Source of the DNA: a virus
Taxonomy: Duplodnaviria; Heunggongvirae; Uroviricota; Caudoviricetes
Reading direction: 5' to 3' (one strand)
Virus record (IMG/VR): IMGVR_UViG_2534681899_000007
DNA: 19,954 nt
Position numbers and translations under genes: made by a program. Numbering within the stretch: position 1 is the stretch's first letter; each line of letters starts with the position of its first letter. Shown here piece after piece: positions 5,892 to 19,954 of this stretch. The notes below the pieces were generated by a model. It saw only the letters and a program-made list of their open reading frames with translations. It had not been told where the DNA came from and ran no database searches.

Positions 5892-6164
5892 TTATTTAGC
5901 TAACTTTTTCCAGATCGCTGAAACGTATTTGGCTTGGTGAATGGCATCATCAAGCGCGTTGTGGCGAGTTCCTTTGAATGACATATCTCGCTTAGGGTCG
6001 AATCCTATTACCTTCCCAAGTTCGACGATTGTTCTTACGTCGCGGTCATTCCACCACTGCCACGGAACTGGCTGCCCTGTCAGCGAATAACTGTTTCGGA
6101 GAATAACGCAGTCAAATGATGCTCCATTCCCCCAAGCCGAAAGCAGACCGCAACGACCTCGCAA
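5892..6164 (-). pseudogene. DnaQ-like (DEDDh) 3'-5' exonuclease, C-terminal fragment (5'-truncated)
   Basis: Contains Exo II-like ([10 protein letters not shown]) and Exo III-like (HNALDDAIHQAKY) motifs, but the Exo I (DxE) region is absent. The upstream part of the ORF overlaps the helicase fragment on the opposite strand. Confidence 0.6.
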
Positions 6165-6553
6165 TTGCTCACATCTCCGGAAGCCTGAAGGCGATGGCGA
6201 AAGACCTGAAAACGCCGGTTATCTCCCTGAGTCAGCTTTCACGCGATGTTGAGAAGCGACCAAACAAACGCCCGACAAACGCAGATTTGCGTGATTCAGG
6301 AAGCATTGAACAGGACGCAGACTCAATCATCATGCTCTATCGGGAAGCTGTATATGACGAGAACAGTAGCGCCGCGCCATTTGCTGAAATCATTGTGACG
6401 AAAAACCGTTTTGGCTCACTTGGTACGGTTTACCAGCGGTTCTGCAACGGACACTTTGTTGCATGTGACCAGGATGAAGCCAGACAGATTTGCACAGCAT
6501 CAAATGCACCCGCTGCACGTGGAAGACGATATGCACAAGGGGCTGACGTATGA
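6116..6553 (+). pseudogene. DnaB-family replicative helicase, C-terminal fragment (5'-truncated)
   Basis: [45 protein letters not shown]...[16 protein letters not shown] matches the C-terminal RecA-like region of DnaB-type helicases (E. coli DnaB: [46 protein letters not shown]). The N-terminal roughly 300 aa are absent; an in-frame stop lies at 6104-6106. Confidence 0.75.
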
Positions 6554-6581
6554 CCGTCTACATCACTGAGATAATAACAGG

Positions 6582-6609
6582 GGCTATTTACACAGTAGCC
6601 CTTTTTTAT
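6582..6609 (+). terminator. Hairpin plus T-run (putative intrinsic terminator) at the helicase/terminase junction
   Basis: GGGCTA...TAGCCC stem followed by TTTTTTATT. Confidence 0.4.
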
Positions 6610-6637
6610 TGGATTAAGAACGAGGGGGATTCCTACG

Positions 6638-7270
6638 ATGGGTAGTGGTCGAATCTTCCAGATACCGGAAGAGACGATTAAGTGTCAGCCGTTCGAGTGT
6701 CCTGATCACTTCTACGTAATTGGTGGGATGGATTTTGGATGGGATCACCCACAGGCGCAGGTTCAGCTTTGGTGGGATAAGGACGCAGACACAATCTACG
6801 TTTCACGCGTGTGGAAGGCGAAAGAAAAAACAGCTGTTCAGGCATGGGGAGCTGTTAAATCATGGGCGCATAAAGTGCCAACCGCATGGCCTCATGACGG
6901 AAACCAGCATGAGAAGGGCGGCGGTGAGCAGCTCAAAGGGCAGTACGCGGACGCTGGTTTTATGATGTTGCAGGAGCATGCGACATGGCCTGATGGCGGT
7001 AACGCTGTGGAGCCTGGAATCACTGAATTGCGCGACATGATGCTTGATGGTCGCTTCAAAGTATTCAACACCTGTGAGCCATTCTTTGAGGAGTTCCGCC
7101 TCTATCACCGTGATGAAAACGGGAAGATCGTCAAGCTTAACGACGACGTGCTATCCGCCGTTCGCTATGCATACATGATGCGCCGCTTCGCCAAAATGAT
7201 GCGCGACATCAAAAAACCAAAAGAGAAAAAGATACCAGCCCCAATCAGGCCCATCGCACGGAGAACTTAA
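6638..7270 (+). pseudogene. Terminase large subunit, C-terminal nuclease-domain fragment (ATPase domain missing)
   Basis: 210-aa ORF with RNase-H-like nuclease-domain features (VIGGMDFGWDHP ... DDVLSAVRYAYMM). Its stop overlaps the portal start (TAAATG), as for P22 genes 2 and 1. An in-frame stop at 6596-6598 leaves no room for the ATPase domain. Confidence 0.7.
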
Positions 7271-8863
7271 ATGGCCGACGAAAACAGACTCAATTCCATT
7301 CTGTGTAAGTTTGACGCGGACTGGATGGCGAGCGATGAAGCCAGAACCGAGGCGACAAATGACCTGTATTTTAGCCGAGTGTCGCAATGGGATGACTGGC
7401 TATCAAACTACACTACCCTGCAATATCGCGGACAATTCGATGTTGTTCGCCCGGTGGTCAGGAAGCTGGTCGCAGAGATGCGCCGTAACCCTATCGACGT
7501 TCTCTTCAGACCAAAAGACGGAGCTAATCCTGATGCTGCCGATGTGTTGATGGGAATGTATCGTACCGATATGCGCCATAACACGGCAAAAATTGCCGTT
7601 AACGTTGGCGTTCGTGAGCAGATAGAGTCCGGCGTTGGTGCATGGCGTCTGGTCACACAGTACGAAGACAACGATCCAACAAGCAACAACCAGGTAATCA
7701 GACGCCTGCCAATCCATGAAGCCTGCTCACACGTCATATGGGACGCCAACAGCAAGCAGATGGATAAGAGCGACGCTAAGCACTGCACGGTGATTAACGC
7801 CTTGTCGCGCAATGGCTGGAAAGAGTTCGCAGAGGATTACGGTATTGATCCGGACACCTTGCCATCTTTCCAGAATCCGAACGATACATGGCTGTTTCCG
7901 TGGGTATCGAATGATGTCGTCTACGTCGCTGAGTATTACGAGGTCGAAGAGAAGAAAGAGAAAGTCTTCATCTACCGCGACCCGCTGACAGGTGAGCCGG
8001 TAAGCTATTACCAGCAGGATATCAAAGACGTCATCGACGACCTGGCTAATCGTGGATTCATTAAGGTAGCAGAGCGCAAGGTGAAGCGTCGGCGTGTGTA
8101 TAAGTCGATCATCACCTGTACGCAGATACTGAAAGACCGCGAGAAGATAGCCGGAGAGCATATTCCAATCGTTCCAGTGTATGGTGAATGGTCATTCGCT
8201 GGTGACAAGGAGTGCTACGAAGGAGTGGTAAGGCTGACGAAAGACGGTCAACGCCTTCGTAACATGATCATGTCGTTCAACGCCGATATTGTTGCTCGTT
8301 CACCGAAGAAGAAACCGACCTTCTTCCCTGAGCAAATCGAAGGCTACGAATACATGTACGGTGGAAATGATGACTATCCGTACTATCTGCAGAACAGGAC
8401 CGATGAAAACGGTAACGACCTGCCGATTGGTCCAATCTCCTACATGGAAAACCCTGAAGTGCCGCAAGCCAACGCTTACATGCTTGAGGCAGCCACCAAC
8501 GCAGTGAAAGAGGTGGCTAGTCTTGGAGTGGATGCGCAGGCGGCAAATGGTCAGGTCGCTTTCGATACCGTCAATCAACTGAACATGCGGGCAGACCTTG
8601 AGACATACGTGTTTCAGGATAACCTGGCTACCGCAATGCGACGTGATGGCGAGATTTATGCCTCAATGGTCAACGATATTTATGACGTTCCTCGCCATGT
8701 AACGCTGACTCTTGAAGACGGAAGCGAGAAAGACGTTCAACTCTACGCGCAAGTTGTAGATTATCCAAACCGTATGCCTGTTGGTAGCGGTAACCAGTTG
8801 GCGAAGTGGAACGGTTGGAATTACTTCCACCGGAAGGAACCTTGCGATAACGGGAGCGAATAA
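7271..8863 (+). CDS. Portal protein (P22 gp1-like), C-terminally shortened or chimeric: 530 aa versus about 725 aa
   Basis: N-terminal roughly 490 aa closely resemble P22 portal as recalled ([18 protein letters not shown]..., [13 protein letters not shown]..., [22 protein letters not shown]...). The last roughly 35 aa do not, and the ORF stops immediately before gp10. Confidence 0.8.
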
Positions 8864-10282
8864 ATGCCGATTCAGCAACTTCCGCTTATGAAAGGTGTCG
8901 GCAAAGACTTTCGAAACGCCGACTATATCGACTATTTGCCAGTGAATATGCTGGCTACACCCAAAGAAATCCTGAACAGCAGCGGATATCTTCGCTCATT
9001 CCCGGGCATTGCCAAACGTTCTGATGTGAACGGTGTATCGCGCGGAGTCGAGTACAACATGGCGCAGAATGCTGTATATCGCGTGTGTGGCGGCAAGCTG
9101 TACAAAGGCGAAAGTGAAGTCGGTGATGTTTCAGGAAGTGGTCGTGTATCAATGGCGCATGGTCGGACATCACAGGCGGTAGGCGTTAATGGTCAACTGG
9201 TCGAGTATCGCTATGATGGCACGGTTAAAACCGTCTCAAACTGGCCTGCAGACAGCGGATTTACGCAGTATGAGTTAGGTTCGGTTCGTGACATTACTCG
9301 CTTACGTGGGCGTTATGCGTGGTCAAAAGACGGCACTGATTCATGGTTTATCACTGACCTTGAAGACGAATCGCATCCTGACCGCTACAGCGCACAATAT
9401 CGCGCAGAATCGCAGCCGGACGGTATCCTCGGCATCGGAACATGGCGAGACTTCATCGTCTGCTTTGGTTCATCGACGATTGAATATTTCTCCCTGACTG
9501 GCGCAACCACCGTTGGTGCTGCTTTGTATGTAGCCCAGCCATCGCTGATGGTGCAGAAAGGCATTGCCGGAACCTACTGCAAAACGCCGTTTGCTGACTC
9601 GTATGCGTTTATCAGCAATCCGGCAACAGGTGCTCCGTCTGTATACATCATCGGCTCCGGTCAGGTATCACCAATCGCCAGCGCGAGCATTGAGAAAATC
9701 CTCCGCTCCTACACTGCTGATGAACTGGCTGATGGCGTGATGGAATCGTTGCGATTTGATGCGCATGAGTTGCTGATTATCCATCTTCCGCGCCATGTTC
9801 TCGTGTACGACGCATCTTCAAGCGCCAATGGTCCGCAATGGTGTGTGCTGAAAACAGGCCTGTATGACGATGTGTACCGCGCTATCGACTTCATTTACGA
9901 AGGCAATCAGATAACGTGCGGAGATAAGCTGGAGTCCGTGACCGGGAAATTGCAGTTCGATATCAGCAGCCAGTACGACAAGCAGCAGGAACACCTGCTG
10001 TTTACTCCGTTGTTCAAAGCGGATAACGCCAGAGTGTTTGACTTTGAGGTTGAATCGTCAACTGGCGTTGCGCAGTATGCTGACCGCCTTTTTCTCTCTG
10101 CAACCACTGACGGCATCAATTACGGGCGTGAGCAGATGATTGAGCAGAATGAACCGTTCGTTTACGACAAACGCGTTTTGTGGAAGCGAGTAGGGCGCAT
10201 CAGGAAAAATGTTGGCTTCAAATTGCGCGTTATCACGAAGTCACCTGTCACTCTGTCTGGCTGCCAGATAAGGATTGAGTAA
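8864..10282 (+). CDS. P22 gp10-like head completion / tail hub protein (472 aa)
   Basis: Full-length ORF recognised as P22 gene 10 product ([16 protein letters not shown]...SGCQIRIE), of the same length. Confidence 0.88.
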
Positions 10283-10983
10283 TGGCGGATTCATCACTGA
10301 ATAATCCTGTCGCGGTTCAGGCTGCGCGCCTTGATGCTTCAATTTTGCCACGCAATATATTCAGCCAGTCTTACCTGCTGTATGTCATAAATCAGGGTGC
10401 TGATGTTGGCGCAATTGCCGGGAAGGCAAATCAGGCTGGTCAGGGCGCTTACGATGCTCAGGTAAAAAACGATGAACAGGACGTCGAACTGGCAGATCAC
10501 GACGCAAGAATCACCGCAAACACAAAAGCGATAAATCTCCTTGAGGTCAGGTTAACAACCGCCGAAGGGAAGATAGTCGTACTACGTAGCGATGTTGATT
10601 ACTTGCTGGATGAGGTTATCGATATTCAGGCGCATCTGGTCACTGTTGACCAAAGACTGGATGGCGTAGAAAGCGATGTATCTGACATTAAGAGTGATTA
10701 CGTATCGAAAACCGTAACCGAATCGCAGTCTCTTGCGTCACCGCTGGATGTAAAAACATCATATTCAGTTGATGGAATTCAGGTTATTGGAGCAAGAAAT
10801 ACCGGATGGACTGCAGCCACAGGTACACCTCTTCTTGGCTCATTCAACGCTAACCAGTCATACACAGTCGGCACTACGTACACACAATCCGAAGTCGCAG
10901 CACTCGCTACAGGTTTGCAGCAGGCGCGGCAGCGTATTCTGGCGCTTGAAACGGCACTTAGATTACATGGGCTGATTGACTGA
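10282..10983 (+). CDS. P22 gp26-like tail needle (233 aa)
   Basis: Length and sequence ([27 protein letters not shown]...; heptad-rich coiled coil) match the P22 tail needle; synteny after gp10. Confidence 0.88.
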
Positions 10984-11438
10984 TGATTACATTCAAACCA
11001 ACGCGAAACATCGACCTGATAGAATCCGTAGGAAATCACCCTGACATTATCGCCGGGAGCAACAACGGTGATGGATACGACTACAAACCTGAATGCCGTT
11101 ACTTTGAGGTTAACGTGCACGGGCAGTTCGGCGGAATTGTTTACTATCAGGAGATTCAGCCGCTGACCTTTGATTGCCACGCCATGTACCTGCCAGAGAT
11201 TCGCGGATTCAGCAAGGAAATTGGGCTGGCGTTCTGGCGATACATTCTGACTAACACCACCGTTCAGTGCGTAACATCGTTCGCTGCACGCAAATTCCGA
11301 CACGGTCAGATGTACTGCGCAATGATTGGCCTTAAGCGTGTAGGAACCATCAAGAAATACTTCAAAGGCGTGGATGACGTGACTTTTTACAGCGCAACAC
11401 GCGAAGAACTAATCGACTTCCTGAATCACGGGAGATAG
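10983..11438 (+). CDS. P22 gp14-like virion assembly protein (151 aa)
   Basis: Position between gp26 and gp7 as in P22; start overlaps the gp26 stop (TGATG). Confidence 0.7.
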   Translation: MITFKPTRNIDLIESVGNHPDIIAGSNNGDGYDYKPECRYFEVNVHGQFGGIVYYQEIQPLTFDCHAMYLPEIRGFSKEIGLAFWRYILTNTTVQCVTSFAARKFRHGQMYCAMIGLKRVGTIKKYFKGVDDVTFYSATREELIDFLNHGR

Positions 11439-11440
11439 CC

Positions 11441-12133
11441 ATGTTATATGCATTTAAGCTGGGCAGAAAACTGCGCGGCGAGGAACCTTATTGCCCTGAA
11501 AAAGGCGGGAAAGGTGGCAGCTCTGATAAAAGCGCAAAGTATGCCGCAGAAGCTCAGAAGTATGCCGCAGACCTGCAAAATCAGCAGTTCAACACCATCA
11601 TGAACAACCTGAAGCCGTTTACTCCTCTGGCTGATAAGTATGTCGGCAGCCTCGAGAACTTATCGTCTCTGGAAGGGCAAGGTCAGGCACTTAACCAGTA
11701 TTACAACTCTCAGCAGTACAAAGATCTTGCTGGTCAGGCTCGTTATCAGAGTCTGGCGGCAGCGGAAGCAACAGGTGGATTAGGTTCCACCGCAACCAGT
11801 AATCAGTTAGCAACAATCGCACCAACGCTAGGTCAGCAATGGCTATCTGGACAAATGAACAATTACAACAACCTGGCAAATATCGGTCTTGGCGCTCTTC
11901 AGGGGCAGGCAAACGCCGGGCAAACATATGCCAACAACATGAGTCAGATTTCACAGCAAAGCGCGGCGCTGGCGGCGGCAAACGCCAACCGACCGTCAGC
12001 ATTGCAGCAGGGTGTTAGTGGTGCTGCATCCGGTGCGCTTTTGGGTGGTGGCATAGCCAGTGCTCTCGAGCTATCAACTCCGTGGGGTGCTGGTATCGGT
12101 GCTGGTCTTGGTCTGCTTGGCTCGTTGTTTTAA
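11441..12133 (+). CDS. P22 gp7-like ejection (DNA transfer) protein
   Basis: 230-aa ORF MLYAFKLGRKLRGEEPYCPEKGGKGG...; Gln/Ala/Gly-rich with a Gly-rich hydrophobic C-terminus, as in P22 gp7. Confidence 0.85.
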   Translation: MLYAFKLGRKLRGEEPYCPEKGGKGGSSDKSAKYAAEAQKYAADLQNQQFNTIMNNLKPFTPLADKYVGSLENLSSLEGQGQALNQYYNSQQYKDLAGQARYQSLAAAEATGGLGSTATSNQLATIAPTLGQQWLSGQMNNYNNLANIGLGALQGQANAGQTYANNMSQISQQSAALAAANANRPSALQQGVSGAASGALLGGGIASALELSTPWGAGIGAGLGLLGSLF

Positions 12134-12143
12134 GGGGTAATCA

Positions 12144-13559
12144 ATGGCTACGTGGCAACAGGGTATTAATTCTGGTGGTTTTCTGGCTGGCATTGGTGCG
12201 CAAAACGAGAATGCGCCAAAGGCAAGCGACATTAACGCAACGCTTGGTCTGATCCGCGAAAACAATGAACTGGCTCGCTCAGGTGCAAATAACGTTGGTC
12301 TGACCGCGTTACGTGGTCTGGCTGGAGTTGCTGATATTTATAAGCAGGAACAGCAACAGAAAGCGATTAGTGCGTTCAATAAGGTTCACGCTGATGCATG
12401 GGCTTCTGGTGATCCATCGGGACTATTTAAGTTTGCCCAGGAAAATCCAGCGTTTGTTGCACAGGCACAACAGGCGTTTTCCGGTCTTAATGAGCAGCAA
12501 CGCAACGATATGGGCGATTTAGCCATGAGGGCTAACGTCGCTCTTTCTCAGGGACCGGAAGCCTACAGTAAATTCATTACTGACAACAAGGACAGGTTAA
12601 ATCGCGTTGGTGCTAATGCTGACTGGATGATTCAGACAGGTATCCAGAATCCAGAGCAGCTATCACACATGCTGACTACTATGTCTCTCGGTGCGCTTGG
12701 GCCAGAAAAGGCGTTTGCTGTTCAGGATAAGATGGCTGGTCGTGAAATTGACCGAGGCAGGCTGGCAGAGACAATCCGCAGCAATCAGGCTGGTGAAGCA
12801 CTTCAGGCGAGAGGGCAAAACCTTTCCTATCAGTCAGCAATGACTGGGCACAATATCGCAGCACAACGCTTGGCTCTGGATCAGCAAGAGTTCGGGTTTA
12901 AGATGCAGCAAGCGCAGGAAAAGGCTCAGCAGTTGATTAGCGAAGCACCTAAGCTGTCAGTAAACATGGAAAAAGGCATCGAGACGGCTGTAAACAATGC
13001 CACAGCATCATCAAACTCAGCCAATTCTATGAGTGCGCTTGCTCAACAGTTCAGAGCAGAAAAACCAACGACAGGTTTGTTCGGTAACGCACAGAACATG
13101 TTCGCAAAACTTACCGGAAGCGATACGACATTGCGTGATTTGCGCATTCGCCAAAATGCCCTTGTTAACAGTCAGGTTCTTAAATTCCTACCTCCCGGCC
13201 CCGCAACGGATAAAGACGTTGAGATCGTTCGTCAGGGTGCACCAACTGACATGGATAACCCTGAGACGGTCGCAAGATGGCTTGATGCTATGGCAAACCT
13301 TGAGCGACGAAACGCGCAGTTTAATGAGTTTAAAGCCGAGTGGATGAGCGCGAATGGCAACCCTGGACAATCGCGTAATGGCGGTCAGATATTGGGGTTG
13401 GATGTTAAAAAAGGTGAATCATTGGGGAGTGCCGTTAAGCGGTATATGTCAATGAATACTGACGCAGCGCCAGCACAAGATTCGACACCTTCAGGAGAAC
13501 CACGGAATCAGGTTGGATCATATACATCAAAATCAGGCATTCAATTTACGGTGGAATGA
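12144..13559 (+). CDS. P22 gp20-like ejection protein (471 aa)
   Basis: Same length and position as P22 gp20. Confidence 0.85.
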
Positions 13560-15397
13560 TGAAAGTAACTGCAAACGGTAAGACATTTACCTTTCCTGAT
13601 GGTACGAGCACCGAAGATATTGGCACCGCCATTGATGAGTATTTTGCTGGTCAGGCTGTTCAGCAACAAACAGTTAATCAGGCCAATAATGCACCAACAC
13701 GGGAAGAACCATCATTGATCCAACAAGCTGGCGATTGGCTCACTGGTGGTCAAAGTGCAGGGCAAATTGCAGAACAGGCTGGTCGTGGTCTGGTAAACAT
13801 ACCATTTGACGTATTGCAGGGCGGCGCAAGTCTGATTAATGCAATCAGTCAGGGGCTTGGTGGACCCAAGGTTTTGGATGATGTTTATCGTCCAGTAGAC
13901 AGACCGACAGACCCCTACGCGCAAGCCGGTGAAACAATTGGTGGGTATTTAGTTCCAGGAGTTGGAACGGCAGGAAGCATGGCTATTGGATCACTGGCAG
14001 AGGCCGCAAATCAGAAAGGCGATTTCGCACAAAATGCAGCTAAAAATGCCGGAGTTAACCTTGCCACTCAGGGTGTTCTTTCCGCAGCAGCAAAGGGAAT
14101 AGGGCGTGGAATAACGGCTATAAAAGGTGATATTGCGCCAGAAGTGGCGAAGAAAATTACCACATCAGAATCGATGGGCGTGACACCAATGACATCTGAT
14201 GTTATCCCGCCGAAAAATGCTTTCACTCGCGGCCTAACTCAGGATGCCGAGGGGGCTTTGCTCGGGACAGGCTCAAAGCGAGCGGAGCAATATGCAACGC
14301 GTAGTAAGCTGGTAAGTAATTATTTTGACCGTTTTGGTGAGTACAACCCTGATGATGTGGTGAAATCTCTTACCACCACGTTAAGGGGGCGGAAGGATGC
14401 CGCTGGCGCTGTTATCAATGACGTCACCAATAAAATGGGTAATGCCGCAGTTGATACCACAAATACCATGAATGCTCTGAATACAGCGATCGCAAGACAG
14501 GAACGGCTTGGGACGTCTGCCAATCAAAGCCTGCTTACATCCTTGCGTAACCTACGTGAAGAATTAGCAAACCCTGCAACTGATTTGGATGTTACGTTTG
14601 ATCTCTTGCGTCAGCACAGAACAGCATTTAGATCTAATGTTCAGGGAGATGCTATGGTCTTCCCCAACCAGGCAAAAGCAGCTACCAATATGGTAGAGAA
14701 TGCAATGTCAAAAGACCTTCGTAACGCAGTTGCTAAAAACCTCGGTGCATCAGACGCAGCAAAATACCTTAAAGCAAATTCCGATTATGCAAACGTTTAT
14801 AATAAGGTGCTTAATAAAAACATTGCTAACAAGCTCAACAAGGCAAGCAGTGAAGCCAGTCCTGAACTTATAAATACCGTTGTATTAAGCAGAAAACCAT
14901 CTGACGTGAAACGAATATGGAGCGCCCTGGATGATAAAGGGAAAGATGCTATGCGTGCAGCTTACGTCAGCAAAATAGCGGAAAAGGCCGGTGACTCTCC
15001 AGCCAAGTTCATCACTGAAGTTAATAAGCTGAAATCTCAGTCAGGCGGTGAAATTTACAACACTATTTTTTCTGGAAAGCACATGAAAGAGCTTGATGCT
15101 CTTCATGAAGTTCTACAGCAAACAGCAAGGTCAGACACCGCAAATGTAGTAACTCAGACGGGGCAATCACAAGCCAACAGGATAAGGACGATTGGCGCAA
15201 CTGCGACTCTTGGTGTATCAATGGGGCTTGAGGCTGGCTTTGGTGCAATGATGCGTTTGTATGAGTCCAAAGCAGCAAGGAATGCTCTCTTACGTCTGGC
15301 AAACACTAAAGCTGGAACGCCAGCCTATGAAAGAGCGTTGAGTAACGCTGCAAATGCCATCAGGCCGCTGCTTGCTACTGAGGCAACACAGCAGTAA
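13556..15397 (+). CDS. P22 gp16-like ejection protein (613 aa)
   Basis: Length and position match P22 gp16; ATGA overlap with gp20. Confidence 0.85.
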
Positions 15398-15421: not shown

Positions 15422-15811
15422 TTAACATTTTCTTTTTACTTTTCCAACAAAAGCTTTGGTTGAATCCATATTCCCATAACCAGAAATGGTTTTCGACATT
15501 AAAACTGTTCCATTAGGATGTATTACCCATGAGTCGATAACTCGTTGAGTTTCGCCATTCGCGCCGATTCCAATGATGGAGTTTTTAGACAATGCTTTGT
15601 AAGCCATGCCGCCCGCATCCGTCCCAGAATATGTGATACTGGCATCTTCACCGTTTGTCTTAATGATGAATGTTCCACTAAAACCATCTTCTTCCGGTTG
15701 AAAATTATTTCGTTCTGAATAGCTTATTCCGTGCATATCTCCAACGACCCAGCACTCTGCTGAGACAGAAAACGAGAAGACAAGGAAAGCCATTGCTATA
15801 ATCAATTTCAT
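15422..15811 (-). CDS. Small Sec-exported protein (129 aa), beta-rich, Cys near both ends of the mature chain; moron in the mnt operon
   Basis: Signal peptide MKLIIAMAFLVFSFSVSA with cleavage after SVSA. AAGGG Shine-Dalgarno 5 nt upstream of the ATG. AT-rich relative to flanking phage genes. Lies 15 nt downstream of the other moron ORF. Confidence 0.65.
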   Translation of the reverse strand: MKLIIAMAFLVFSFSVSAECWVVGDMHGISYSERNNFQPEEDGFSGTFIIKTNGEDASITYSGTDAGGMAYKALSKNSIIGIGANGETQRVIDSWVIHPNGTVLMSKTISGYGNMDSTKAFVGKVKRKC

Positions 15812-15826
15812 TTTAAGCCCTTATTG

Positions 15827-16162
15827 TTATTGATTCTTTTTGCACGGAAATGTTTTTCCTACTGCTAGGGCGGTTAGTATAACTGCACTCTCATTTCTTG
15901 ATTCTGGGTTTTTGTTTAGATATTTCTCAACGATATCGGTGTATTGATACATGTCAACGCCATCAGGAGGACATAGAGAACCAATTAGTATCAATGAGTC
16001 AGTTACTCCGCGCAAATATCCAGTAATGTAAAGCGATGAAAAATCATCACCCTTTTTACCTTGTTGAATGTTGTAAAGAAGGTCATTACCCGTTTGAAGC
16101 TCGCGCAGCTCAGCACTGGAAGAAGAGACAACTGCTAACAAGAACAGTGATAGAAATCTCAT
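15827..16162 (-). CDS. Small Sec-exported protein (111 aa), probably helical with 2 Cys; possible Rap1a/Tai4-like periplasmic immunity-type fold (tentative)
   Basis: Signal peptide MRFLSLFLLAVVSSSSA. Its start codon overlaps the mnt stop (ATGA) and an AAGGA Shine-Dalgarno lies inside the mnt 3' end. Mature part contains ...GYLRGVTDSL...SLCPPDG...ILTALAVGKTFPC. Confidence 0.65.
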   Translation of the reverse strand: MRFLSLFLLAVVSSSSAELRELQTGNDLLYNIQQGKKGDDFSSLYITGYLRGVTDSLILIGSLCPPDGVDMYQYTDIVEKYLNKNPESRNESAVILTALAVGKTFPCKKNQ

Positions 16163-16733: not shown

Positions 16734-17612
16734 ATGAAAAGTATAGCAAAGGCACAAAACGATTTCACCATCTTCAAATTCGGCGACAGTGAAATCCGCG
16801 TCATCAACAAGTGCGGTGAGCCGTGGTTTGTAGCTAAAGATGTTTGTGATGCTTTAGATTTGACTAACTCACGCAAGGCGCTTACTGCACTTGATGACGA
16901 TGAAAAGGGAGTAACTTTAAGTTACACCCTTGGTGGTGAGCAGAATCTAAGCATTGTGAGCGAATCAGGTATGTATACATTGGTTCTGCGCTGCCGCGAT
17001 GCAGTCAATAAAGGTTCAGTCCCGCACAAATTCCGCAAGTGGGTAACAGCAGAAGTTCTGCCTTCAATTCGCAAACATGGCGAGTATGTAAAAGGAAAGA
17101 AAACCACTGTTGAGGAAAGAACACCGCTACGCGATGCAGTAAACATGCTGGTAGGAAAGAAAGGACTTCGCTATGACGATGCATACAATATGGTTCATCA
17201 GCGTTTTGGTATTGACAGCATTGATGAACTTTCAATTGAACAAATCCCGCTGGCCGTAGAGTACATCCACAGGGTAGTGCTTGAAGGTGAGTTCATTGGC
17301 AAACAAGAGAAGAAAACCAACTAGCTTTCTGCAAAAGAAGCAAACAGCCTTGTATGGTTATGGGATTATGCCAACCGCTCACAGGCATTATTCCGCGAAC
17401 TGTATCCGGCGCTAAAACAAATTCAATCGAACTATTCCGGCAGATGCTACGACTACGGTCATGAATTCTCGTATGTTATCGGAATGGCGAGAGACGTTTT
17501 AATAAACCACACACGAGATGTTGATATCAATGAGCCAGACGGACCAACGAATCTTTCCGCATGGATGAGACTTAAGAATAAAGAATTACCTCCTTCAGTA
17601 CATAACTACTGA
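16734..17612 (+). pseudogene. ant: Antirepressor Ant (Bro-N domain) interrupted by an in-frame amber codon at 17322-17324
   Basis: 196-aa N-terminal ORF with a Bro-N-like motif ([16 protein letters not shown]). After the TAG the same frame stays open for 95 further codons to TGA at 17610-17612, giving about 292 codons in total; P22 Ant is about 300 aa. Confidence 0.75.
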
Positions 17613-17713: not shown

Positions 17714-19954
17714 ATGACAGATTCAATAAATGCCAATGTTGTGGTAAGCATGCCTTCGCAACTCTTCACTATGGCGCGTTCTTTTAAAGCGGTTGCCAAT
17801 GGCAAAATTTATATCGGTAAAATTGACACTGACCCGGTAAATCCTGAAAACCAGATTCAGGTTTATTTAGAGAACGAAGACGGCTCTCACGTTCCTGTAT
17901 CGCAACCAATCATCATTAACGCTGCTGGTTACCCGGTATATAACGGACAGATTGCCAAATTCGTTACTGTACATGGCCATTCTATGGCTGTTTATGATGC
18001 GTACGGTGCTCAGCAGTTCTATTTTCCTAATGTGTTGAAGTATGACCCTGACCAACTCAGGCAAGATCTTGCATCTCAAGGCGGTGTTAATCTGGTAAAC
18101 GGAGCTATCTCACAGGAAGATCTTGTTTTGCAGTCGATCACAAAAATCCCAAGTTATGATAATTCTAACGTAGTCCAGGCGTGGCGCGATAGTGTTGCTA
18201 CCTACGGGTATGTTTACTTTTCTAATCATTCAAAAAATCAGATGGTGTACACCGTACCGTCTACAGCTGCTAACGCTTCTTCCCTTGCGAACAGTAAAGT
18301 AATCATTGATAAAAATGTCACCCTGAGATTCGACAGTGATCTGTACTCACTGTTTAAATCGTTGCAGTACGAGGGGGAGGGTACGTTTGAATTTACGCAC
18401 CTGAACTTTAAAGCAACCGGTGGAGAAGTGGATTACCTGGCTAAGCAGGCCATCCTCAACCGAAACCCTATTCGCATGAAGCGAGTGGAATGGTCAGATT
18501 GTAAAGTTTATTCCATAAATGGTGACACGTTCTTCTATGAAGGTGAAGTCACCATATCCTCAGATAGCGCAGCTGTCGTCGCCTTAACTACTAACTATGC
18601 AACAGGCCTGTTCGCACCAATAGATATTGGTGAGCATATTTCTGCACATATTCGCATGGAATCTCAGGCCGCCTCAGAAGTTGGGATTGTTCTGCGATGC
18701 TCTGGTGGTTGGATGATGTTCTATGGGGCACCAGGTGCTACACAGTGGTCTTATAGACAGAAACCAATTGGTGGTCCAGTAGCAGAAGGAACTCCATTCC
18801 CGCTGCCAGGAGGTTTACTGTCGTACGCCCCGGGCAAAGCAACCGTTGGCGTATCACTGCAAGGTAAAAACTGGGCGCAGATAACGATGAATGGCGTTGG
18901 GATACGTTTGCCCTTTGATACTGGTGATGTAGGGGATGTATACGAAGTTGGGTTTGTTGCACTGACCCCGGCATCTGGAGGTTCTGCGCGAGTAACTGGA
19001 TTATGCAGCTACACCTCTGATAATGGCGTGCACGGTAAGCCTCCACTTAATATCCTTATCCACGGTGATAGTACAGCTGAGGATTTCATTTCCGCGTTCA
19101 GCTCGTACATTCCGCAATTAATGGATGGAGCGAACGGCCACCGTTCATATAGCCTTGTAAACAAGGCGGTTGCCGGACAGACAATGAGGCAACAGTTAGA
19201 TCTCCTGAAGGCTCAGGGGCCGGGTGATGCTTACATCGTTATTATGGTTGCCGGAACTAACGAAGGGCAGGCAAACCAAAACGGCGATTATATGGCGGCA
19301 CTGATAGATGAGTTTGTCTTATATTGCAATGGCCTTGGTCGTATCCCTGTTTGGGTTGAGCCGTGGATGTGGTATAGCCAGTCATTTATTGGAGGGGCTG
19401 GTCAGCCATCTTCTAACTACGACGGTGTCGCAGAGTTGCGAGAAGCTGGTAAACGCCAGATGATGAAATATGGCAATAACGTCATTTGTGTAACAACAAC
19501 TCACCAGCTCCCGGCCCCATATCCAGAGTATTTCAACACGCAATACGACCCACTTCTGCGTGATGACATTCACCAAAGCCAGTTAGGGTATCGTCTGTAT
19601 GCGGAAATTATCTGCTCTGCCATTATCGACTGGTGGTCGCGTGTTGATTACACGCCAAGAGCAGCTGTTCAATGGTGGGCTGGAACAAACGTAACAGTAC
19701 AGGCACCGTCAAGTTTAACTGCCAATTCAATTAATATTAAACTGGCAGCCACTTCATTTGCGAATGGCAATACTGTTCTAACGCTTCCGAGGTGGTGCAG
19801 ACCAAAAGTAACCAAAAATGTCCCTGTACCGTTCACTGCTGATGGCGTTTCATTTGGTATGGCAATGGCCACCATTAATGCTTCAACAGGACAAATATCG
19901 ATTGAAGGGTCCACAACTACATCTCCAACGTTCTACATAGATGCGACATGGTAG
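17714..19954 (+). CDS. Tailspike: P22-type head-binding N-terminal domain fused to a different receptor-binding region containing an SGNH/GDSL hydrolase-like domain
   Basis: N-terminus [35 protein letters not shown]...NVLKYDPDQ resembles the P22 gp9 head-binding domain. The downstream sequence is unrelated to the P22 endorhamnosidase and carries GDS (19064-19072), GTNE (19253-19264) and DDIH (19562-19573). Start chosen at the ATG after a GGAG Shine-Dalgarno, not at 17693. The stop is the last codon of the window. Confidence 0.88.

Follow-up and report, generated by a model that had tools for sequence, protein, structure and literature searches.

The stretch of DNA analysed here (19,954 nucleotides; hereafter, the window) opens in the host gene ybhC, which is followed by int and xis (1-2685), and nine collinear blocks in it match the intact 37-kb P22-like prophage of Escherichia coli E9, which served as our reference (hereafter, E9). 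In two sister loci of the same element (L006 and L010), ybhB and bioA follow the tailspike gene. With ybhC, int, and xis on one side and ybhB and bioA on the other, the element can be assigned to a prophage at the lambda attachment site. The features on which the following analysis centers are listed below by position and strand.

5892-6164, minus strand: truncated exonuclease gene (PF16473 positions 100-177 of 177), forming the left edge of a deletion termed del1
6116-6553, plus strand: C-terminal fragment of a DnaB-type helicase, 145 aa (tblastn to dnaB 320-458; PF03796), forming the right edge of del1
6579-6603, plus strand: terminator-like hairpin with a T run (consensus scan), between the dnaB and TerL fragments and upstream of the fusion
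6638-7270, plus strand: truncated large terminase (TerL), 210 aa (tblastn to TerL 283-499; PF17289 only), the product of a second deletion termed del2
7271-8763, plus strand: portal-derived part of the fusion ORF (codons 1-498), comprising wing, stem, and clip/stalk and ending within the hammer loop
8761-8763, plus strand: deletion junction with 3-bp microhomology (TTA), common to the portal (GAT TAC) and gp4 (GGT TAT) parents
8764-8863, plus strand: gp4-derived tail of the fusion ORF (codons 499-530 and the TAA stop)
8864-10282, plus strand: intact gp10 gene (tail hub/head closure), 472 aa (PF11134, 998.7 bits, full length)

Positions 7271 to 8863 of the plus strand constitute one ORF of 530 codons, the length stated in a preliminary description of this DNA, plus a TAA stop. 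This ORF is a chimera: its first 498 codons are portal codons 1 to 498, and the final 32 codons of gp4 follow in the same reading frame. Residues 1 to 498 share 99.6% amino acid identity with residues 1 to 498 of the 721-aa E9 portal, and residues 3 to 498 align to residues 4 to 499 of the P22 portal (E = 1.5e-280) in a search against solved structures. Likewise, the PF16510 (P22_portal) profile matches residues 12 to 492 at 436 bits against a cut-off of 26.1 bits, with only profile positions 2 to 466 of 594 being covered. Compared with a P22-like portal, the product thus matches the family profile but lacks the complete domain set, and its gene does not lie in the order TerL-portal-scaffold-coat. 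The last 32 codons are 100% identical at the amino acid level to residues 135 to 166 of gp4 from both E9 and phage CurroJimenez, and Tyr498 of the fusion is common to gp4 (Tyr134). More distantly, residues 493 to 527 align weakly to the C-terminus of P22 gp4 (roughly residues 127 to 157), and PF11650 (P22_Tail-4, i.e., gp4) scores 19.7 bits on residues 500 to 524, under its 21-bit cut-off; only residues 135 to 166 of the adaptor are present, without its helical globular domain. Alignment of the 530-aa protein to gp4 and portal proteins therefore identifies the tail as the gp4 C-terminus and the remainder as portal. The final ~35 codons had been described as unlike a portal; the foreign tail is real, but it measures 32 codons.

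At its 3' end, the fusion ORF stops with TAA at 8861-8863 and gp10 starts with ATG at 8864, so that the two codons are adjacent (TAAATG, 8861-8866) and do not overlap, contrary to the earlier claim. A stop codon that abuts or overlaps the gp10 start is a property of gp4 genes, and the fusion ORF shows it. Among IMG/VR contigs, TAAATG is found on 72 and the overlapping form TAATG on 85, i.e., both are common native gp4/gp10 alleles. The earlier suggestion that TAAATG represents the native gp4/gp10 junction is consequently borne out, and a reading of TAAATG as a deletion scar was rejected. The gp10 product itself shares 98.7% amino acid identity with that of E9.

We mapped the portal::gp4 junction by a three-way nucleotide comparison (with the Dewey portal and the CurroJimenez gp4), combined with a comparison of the flanks with E9. 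In megablast searches against phage genomes, 6626-8767 matches the 3' end of TerL and the portal gene of phages such as Dewey (97.7%), and 8761-11000 matches the gp4 3' end, gp10, gp26, and gp14 of CurroJimenez and IME10 (~95-96%). Consistently, 6626-8763 (the TerL 3' end together with the portal-derived part) corresponds to E9 24871-27008 at 97.4% nucleotide identity, and 8761-12802 (the gp4 3' end, gp10, and the genes after it) corresponds to E9 30552-34591 at 95.7%, so that collinearity with intact P22-like genomes breaks at 8761-8763. The portal parent reads GTA GAT TAC CAG, the gp4 parent reads TCC GGT TAT CCA, and the window reads GTA GAT TAT CCA; because the A at 8760 is portal-specific and the T at 8764 is gp4-specific, the crossover lies within TTA 8761-8763. 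Measured against E9 and CurroJimenez, 3,546 bp are missing; against Dewey, where an additional HNH gene is present, the gap is ~4.16 kb. The lost segment contains portal codons 499-721, the genes for scaffold and coat, a small ORF, and codons 1-134 of gp4. The parental portal and gp4 genes read in the same frame, an in-frame outcome alone having a prior of 1 in 3. Both collinearity and shared frame agree with the internal deletion, in frame with the gp4 3' end, that the preliminary description had put forward.

According to structural work on P22, the portal is divided into a core (1-602), a stalk (344-398) that binds TerL and gp4, a hammer loop (456-505), a crown (525-600), and a barrel (600-725) (PMC5290284). 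Since the portal-derived part ends at the P22-equivalent residue 499, inside the hammer loop, both crown and barrel are lost. The initial view that the barrel is missing and the core retained is therefore correct for the barrel but not for the core, which extends to residue 602 and of which the crown is gone as well. In virions, the C-terminal arm of gp4 is lodged between protomers of the portal, at the base of its ring (PMC5290284; for the Sf6 homologue, PMC9728967). It is a curiosity that the portal is here fused to a peptide that normally binds the portal, and our data contain no sign that this pairing matters.

Besides the deletion that created the fusion, the window carries two more, del1 and del2. 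The former joins the exonuclease gene to DnaB codon 320 at ~6134-6138 (the exonuclease/abc2 match ends at ~6138) and removed recombination, N, cI, cro, cII, and replication functions. The latter (~6626-6634), mapped against sister loci L006 and L007, joins the region after dnaB to TerL codon ~283, with loss of nin, Q, the lysis genes, and terS. The resulting TerL fragment, directly upstream of the fusion, retains only the nuclease domain and the portal-binding C-terminal tail. TerL, DnaB, and portal are all truncated in the window. Searching the whole window with E9 proteins (tblastn) detected no scaffold, coat, terS, cI, cro, Q, holin, lysozyme, replication protein, erf, or N. Scaffold and coat are thus absent, as first noted, but gp4, which had been listed with them, persists in its last 32 codons. 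The window copy has kept gp10, gp26, gp14, gp7, gp20, gp16, and the tailspike gene, as well as intact int and xis, and its ant gene contains a GAG-to-TAG nonsense codon; in one sister copy, the integrase is split. Taken together, the element is integrated with an integrase, is collinear with an intact prophage except for internal gaps, and has lost essential lytic genes, as is characteristic of a defective prophage.

With regard to expression, a simple consensus scan, which weak or read-through transcription could escape, found no sigma-70-like promoter on either strand between 5500 and 9000 (3.8 expected by chance). In the window copy, Q and the late promoter region are deleted. We infer that the fusion gene is not expressed from this copy; where Q and the late region remain, as in some sister copies, its expression may still be possible.

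The distribution of the junction was assessed in several collections. None of the 5,426 complete E. coli genomes spans it (912 carry one side or the other), and a 29-mer across the junction is absent from IMG/VR (2.9 million viral contigs), from GTDB species representatives, and from JGI metagenomes. An exact-sequence look-up located the 530-aa protein in 58 contig blocks, from draft E. coli genomes, including KTE90, and from assembled read sets. The identical junction is carried by at least nine of the loci fetched, which come from independent NCBI assemblies (GCA_000352485.1, GCA_049466035.1, GCA_965255455.1, GCA_015245295.1, GCA_040351245.1, and GCA_900603635.1) and from Logan read-set assemblies. 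All copies fetched match the window with a nucleotide identity of 99.96% or more (100% over 18.9 kb for L005), and copies differ from one another by at most one substitution in 12 kb. Given this near-identity and the absence from other collections, the junction traces to one event in one clone rather than to a family of short portals. We found no intact parent, i.e., the same tailspike or dnaB fragment accompanied by a full portal, among the 24 contigs examined per look-up, all of which carry the fusion where that region is covered.

The copies nevertheless fall into several deletion states, as follows (L008 and L175 cover the element partially and were placed from the regions they contain).

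Least deleted state (L007, L008, L172, L175): nin, Q, the lysis cassette, terS, and full TerL kept
delA and delC (L004, L009, L010; L170 and L174 for the delA region only): lysis lost by delA, gp26 to gp7 lost by delC
delB and delD (L006, L011, L173): lysis to the TerL 5' end lost by delB, gp10 to gp7 lost by delD
del2 state (window, L005, L171): nin to mid-TerL lost

Since del1 and the portal::gp4 junction are present in every copy wherever the locus covers those regions, both are older than the other deletions. These near-identical genomes record three losses of the lysis cassette and two of the gp26-gp7 block, and all deletion junctions show microhomology of a few base pairs only.

From these observations, we conclude that the ORF is very probably a pseudogene-like, nonfunctional chimera that arose from a single ~3.5-kb microhomology deletion in a decaying P22-like E. 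coli prophage. In the scenario we propose, a RecA-independent illegitimate deletion within the late operon of a P22-like prophage, residing in an E. coli clone on the ybhC side of the lambda attachment site, would have joined portal codon 498 to gp4 codon 135 inside the shared TTA. Because portal and gp4 happen to share a frame, translation would then run on into the C-terminal arm of gp4 and end at the native stop of gp4 beside the gp10 start. This one event would have taken the crown and barrel of the portal, the genes for scaffold and coat, the small ORF, and the globular body of gp4, and, together with the deletion of immunity and replication genes, would have left the prophage unable to build heads. 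The prophage may already have been defective when the deletion struck, or was soon to become so, and the lineage would subsequently have gone on losing late and lysis genes by further small-microhomology deletions. The chimeric gene of the window most likely does nothing, and we propose that it persists because the event is recent. The sister-copy losses of gp10, gp26, gp14, and gp7, together with the ant nonsense codon and the split integrase, are consistent with such neutral decay.

Besides weak or read-through transcription and expression in sister copies, both mentioned above as possibilities, two considerations weigh against this conclusion. First, an ORF that is intact, in frame, and 100% conserved across all copies seen is also what selection would yield. 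However, with at most one substitution in 12 kb among copies, perfect conservation of the ORF carries no information, and by a rough estimate, a 1.6-kb gene has a chance of about 30% of being spared by five later deletions in an element of ~28 kb. Second, another P22-like prophage elsewhere in the host may supply coat and scaffold in trans. Literature searches on truncated portals of prophages, functional ones included, and on in-frame deletions in P22-like defective prophages yielded no direct precedent.

A function acquired after the deletion is the alternative that fares best, and we consider it improbable. According to this explanation, the product would be a domesticated, crown-less and barrel-less portal that poisons head assembly of a superinfecting P22-like phage in a dominant-negative manner, either by co-assembling with the portal of a phage of the HK620, Sf6, or CUS-3 type or by titrating its partners. 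The wing, stem, and clip, i.e., the surfaces that bind scaffold, TerL, and gp4, are indeed kept, including the stalk (344-398) that binds TerL and gp4 (PMC5290284), and the intact reading frame has native translational signals at both ends. The ORF is also retained in all copies, even in those found via the tailspike or the dnaB fragment; this retention is uninformative, however, given how nearly identical the copies are. The lack of a promoter-like site, the terminator-like hairpin upstream, and the deletion of Q and the late promoter region from the window copy all argue against a functional product, as does the free loss of neighboring late genes. Moreover, PADLOC matched neither the fusion protein nor the neighboring unknown ORFs to a defence or satellite family, and a text search found no paper pairing a truncated portal with a prophage. 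We regard as more doubtful still the specific proposal that portal(1-498)::gp4-arm, made at a low level, acts as a dominant-negative decoy when P22-like phages superinfect, disturbing their head assembly or the docking of terminase. If true, it would mean that an accident of prophage deletion had been co-opted as an exclusion factor.

Alternatively, the element could be a satellite-like hijacker without capsid genes, using the heads of a helper and supplying its own tail, ejection proteins, and tailspike, as the retention of gp10, gp26, gp14, gp7, gp20, gp16, and tailspike alongside intact int and xis might suggest. We give this idea very little credence, since the element has no replication module, no small terminase/pac recognition, and no immunity/derepression module. 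PICI or P4-like satellites have a replication/primase module of their own, helper-sensing regulation, and a packaging-redirection function, whereas the window contains only the C-terminal fragment of DnaB, and the search with the replication protein, repressor, and small terminase of E9 gave no homologue. In addition, gp10 through gp7 are lost in sister copies belonging to this clone, and the layout, seen in one clone only, is fully explained by deletions from the standard P22-like map.

There is next to no chance that the ORF belongs to a natural family of short (~530-aa) portals in a complete, differently organized phage with coat and scaffold encoded elsewhere. The strong P22_portal match (436 bits) and the name 'portal protein' in public records would fit such a family, but the 97.4% nucleotide identity to 721-aa portal genes stops abruptly at 8763 and resumes at 95.7% inside gp4, the profile is matched over positions 2-466 of 594 only, and the window has no coat or scaffold homologue. 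Nor was the junction found in the viral contigs, the GTDB and JGI collections, or the 5,426 complete E. coli genomes searched. This family, which the preliminary description had named as the case that would overturn a deletion, was rejected on the break in collinearity and because these searches gave no independent, diverged ~530-aa homologues, all copies belonging to one prophage. An assembly or sequencing artefact (a chimeric contig join), a generic concern for any unexpected junction with nothing specific in its favor here, is equally negligible and was rejected, as the identical junction recurs in at least nine loci from independent assemblies and the exact protein in 58 blocks.

The fusion is thus an ordinary gene remnant of a well-known kind, with no sign of a new function. 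It illustrates that prophage decay through short microhomologies can create tidy-looking chimeric ORFs that pass for normal genes in annotation pipelines; the name 'portal protein' given to the fusion in public records is a mislabel and calls for caution in annotation. As only one E. coli lineage carries the junction, it can be used as a clonal marker. The fusion alone matters little, and the set of deletion states is the more interesting by-product: near-identical genomes in successive states could be used to measure rates of, and possible selection in, prophage decay. Prophage domestication and decay are reportedly the subject of a study by Bobay et al. from 2014.

In comparison with known systems, residues 1 to 498 of the fusion are collinear with the E9 portal and align to the P22 gp1 portal (PF16510; PDB 3LJ5, 5JJ1, and 5JJ3), whose gene likewise lies directly downstream of TerL, and the portals of E. 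coli P22-like elements (Dewey, CurroJimenez, IME10, and the E9 prophage) are also among the closest known systems. Unlike a P22-type portal, the fusion lacks the last 223 residues (the end of the hammer loop, the crown, and the barrel) and has a 32-residue foreign tail instead; its portal part (1-498) is also shorter than the experimental portal 'core' construct (1-602; PMC5290284). With the P22 gp4/Sf6 gp7 adaptor (PF11650; PDB 4V4K, 8TVU, and 7SFS), it shares the C-terminal arm and the stop/start junction with gp10, but it is without the helical globular body (1-134) that oligomerizes on the portal and carries gp10. As a whole, the element resembles the cryptic or defective lambdoid prophages known from E. 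coli, which decay through internal deletions: it is integrated at an att site with int and xis, is collinear with intact relatives apart from such deletions, has lost immunity, replication, lysis, and head genes, and has a nonsense mutation in ant. It does not differ from these prophages in kind, and what is notable is the occurrence of several successive deletion states among near-identical genomes.

At least four deletion states of a single prophage have been sampled in E. coli assemblies (window 6116-7270 and 8761-8763; loci L004-L012 and L170-L175, which hold sister copies of the element), and the copies share at least 99.96% nucleotide identity with the window. The exonuclease/DnaB junction (del1) and the in-frame portal::gp4 junction are common to all of these states. 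After both had formed, the lysis cassette was lost three times independently, i.e., in delA, together with the 5' part of TerL (delB), and within the nin to mid-TerL deletion carried by the window (del2), while the gp26-gp14-gp7 block was lost twice (delC, gp26 to gp7; delD, gp10 to gp7). Microhomology at each deletion junction amounts to a few bp only. Selection, rather than chance, might lie behind the recurrent loss of lysis genes.

Features of the window discussed here
5892-6164, minus strand, 3'-5' exonuclease gene reduced to its C-terminal part (PF16473 positions 100-177)
6116-6553, plus strand, DnaB-type helicase fragment (its C-terminal 139 codons), on the other side of the del1 junction
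6638-7270, plus strand, TerL fragment of 210 aa, with the nuclease domain and a basic, proline-rich C-terminal tail kept
16734-17612, plus strand, ant (antirepressor) pseudogene with an in-frame stop relative to the E9 prophage
17714-19954, plus strand, tailspike of 746 aa with a conserved P22-type head-binding domain (residues 4-114)

At del1, the exonuclease and helicase fragments meet head-to-head, and the immunity, N and replication-initiation region is entirely gone. The TerL fragment lacks the ATPase domain; the C-terminal tail of TerL is its portal-binding site (PMC5290284).

Further lesions affect ant and the integrase. Codon 197 of ant is an in-frame TAG, versus GAG (Glu) in the intact 37-kb P22-like prophage of E. 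coli E9. Because homology continues past this TAG in the same frame, up to 17609, the called 196-aa Bro-N protein represents a nonsense truncation of an Ant of ~292 aa. One sister copy, in GCA_900603635.1 (locus L173, 5305-6374), has two called ORFs of 154 and 159 aa in place of a single integrase gene, and this split is an additional inactivating lesion of the same element.

Alignment to E9 is lost across 12802-13703, in the genes of the ejection proteins gp20 (3' half) and gp16 (5' end), and tblastn covered only residues 1-241 of gp20 and 45-624 of gp16. This divergence is a mosaic replacement and not a deletion. Between gp16 and mnt lie two cargo genes (15422-16162, minus strand). The product of one (111 aa) belongs to the Rap1a family (PF18602, E = 9.6e-15), a family of type VI secretion immunity proteins. 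The second gene, an ORF of 129 aa, shares 93% identity with an E9 hypothetical protein and had no match in Pfam or PADLOC searches.

Among contigs with a tailspike identical to this one, all 24 that were inspected held the same defective prophage. The receptor-binding part of the tailspike, for which Pfam returned no hit, does not match the best related prophages, and the first ~127 residues of the tailspike are 87.5% identical to those of E9.
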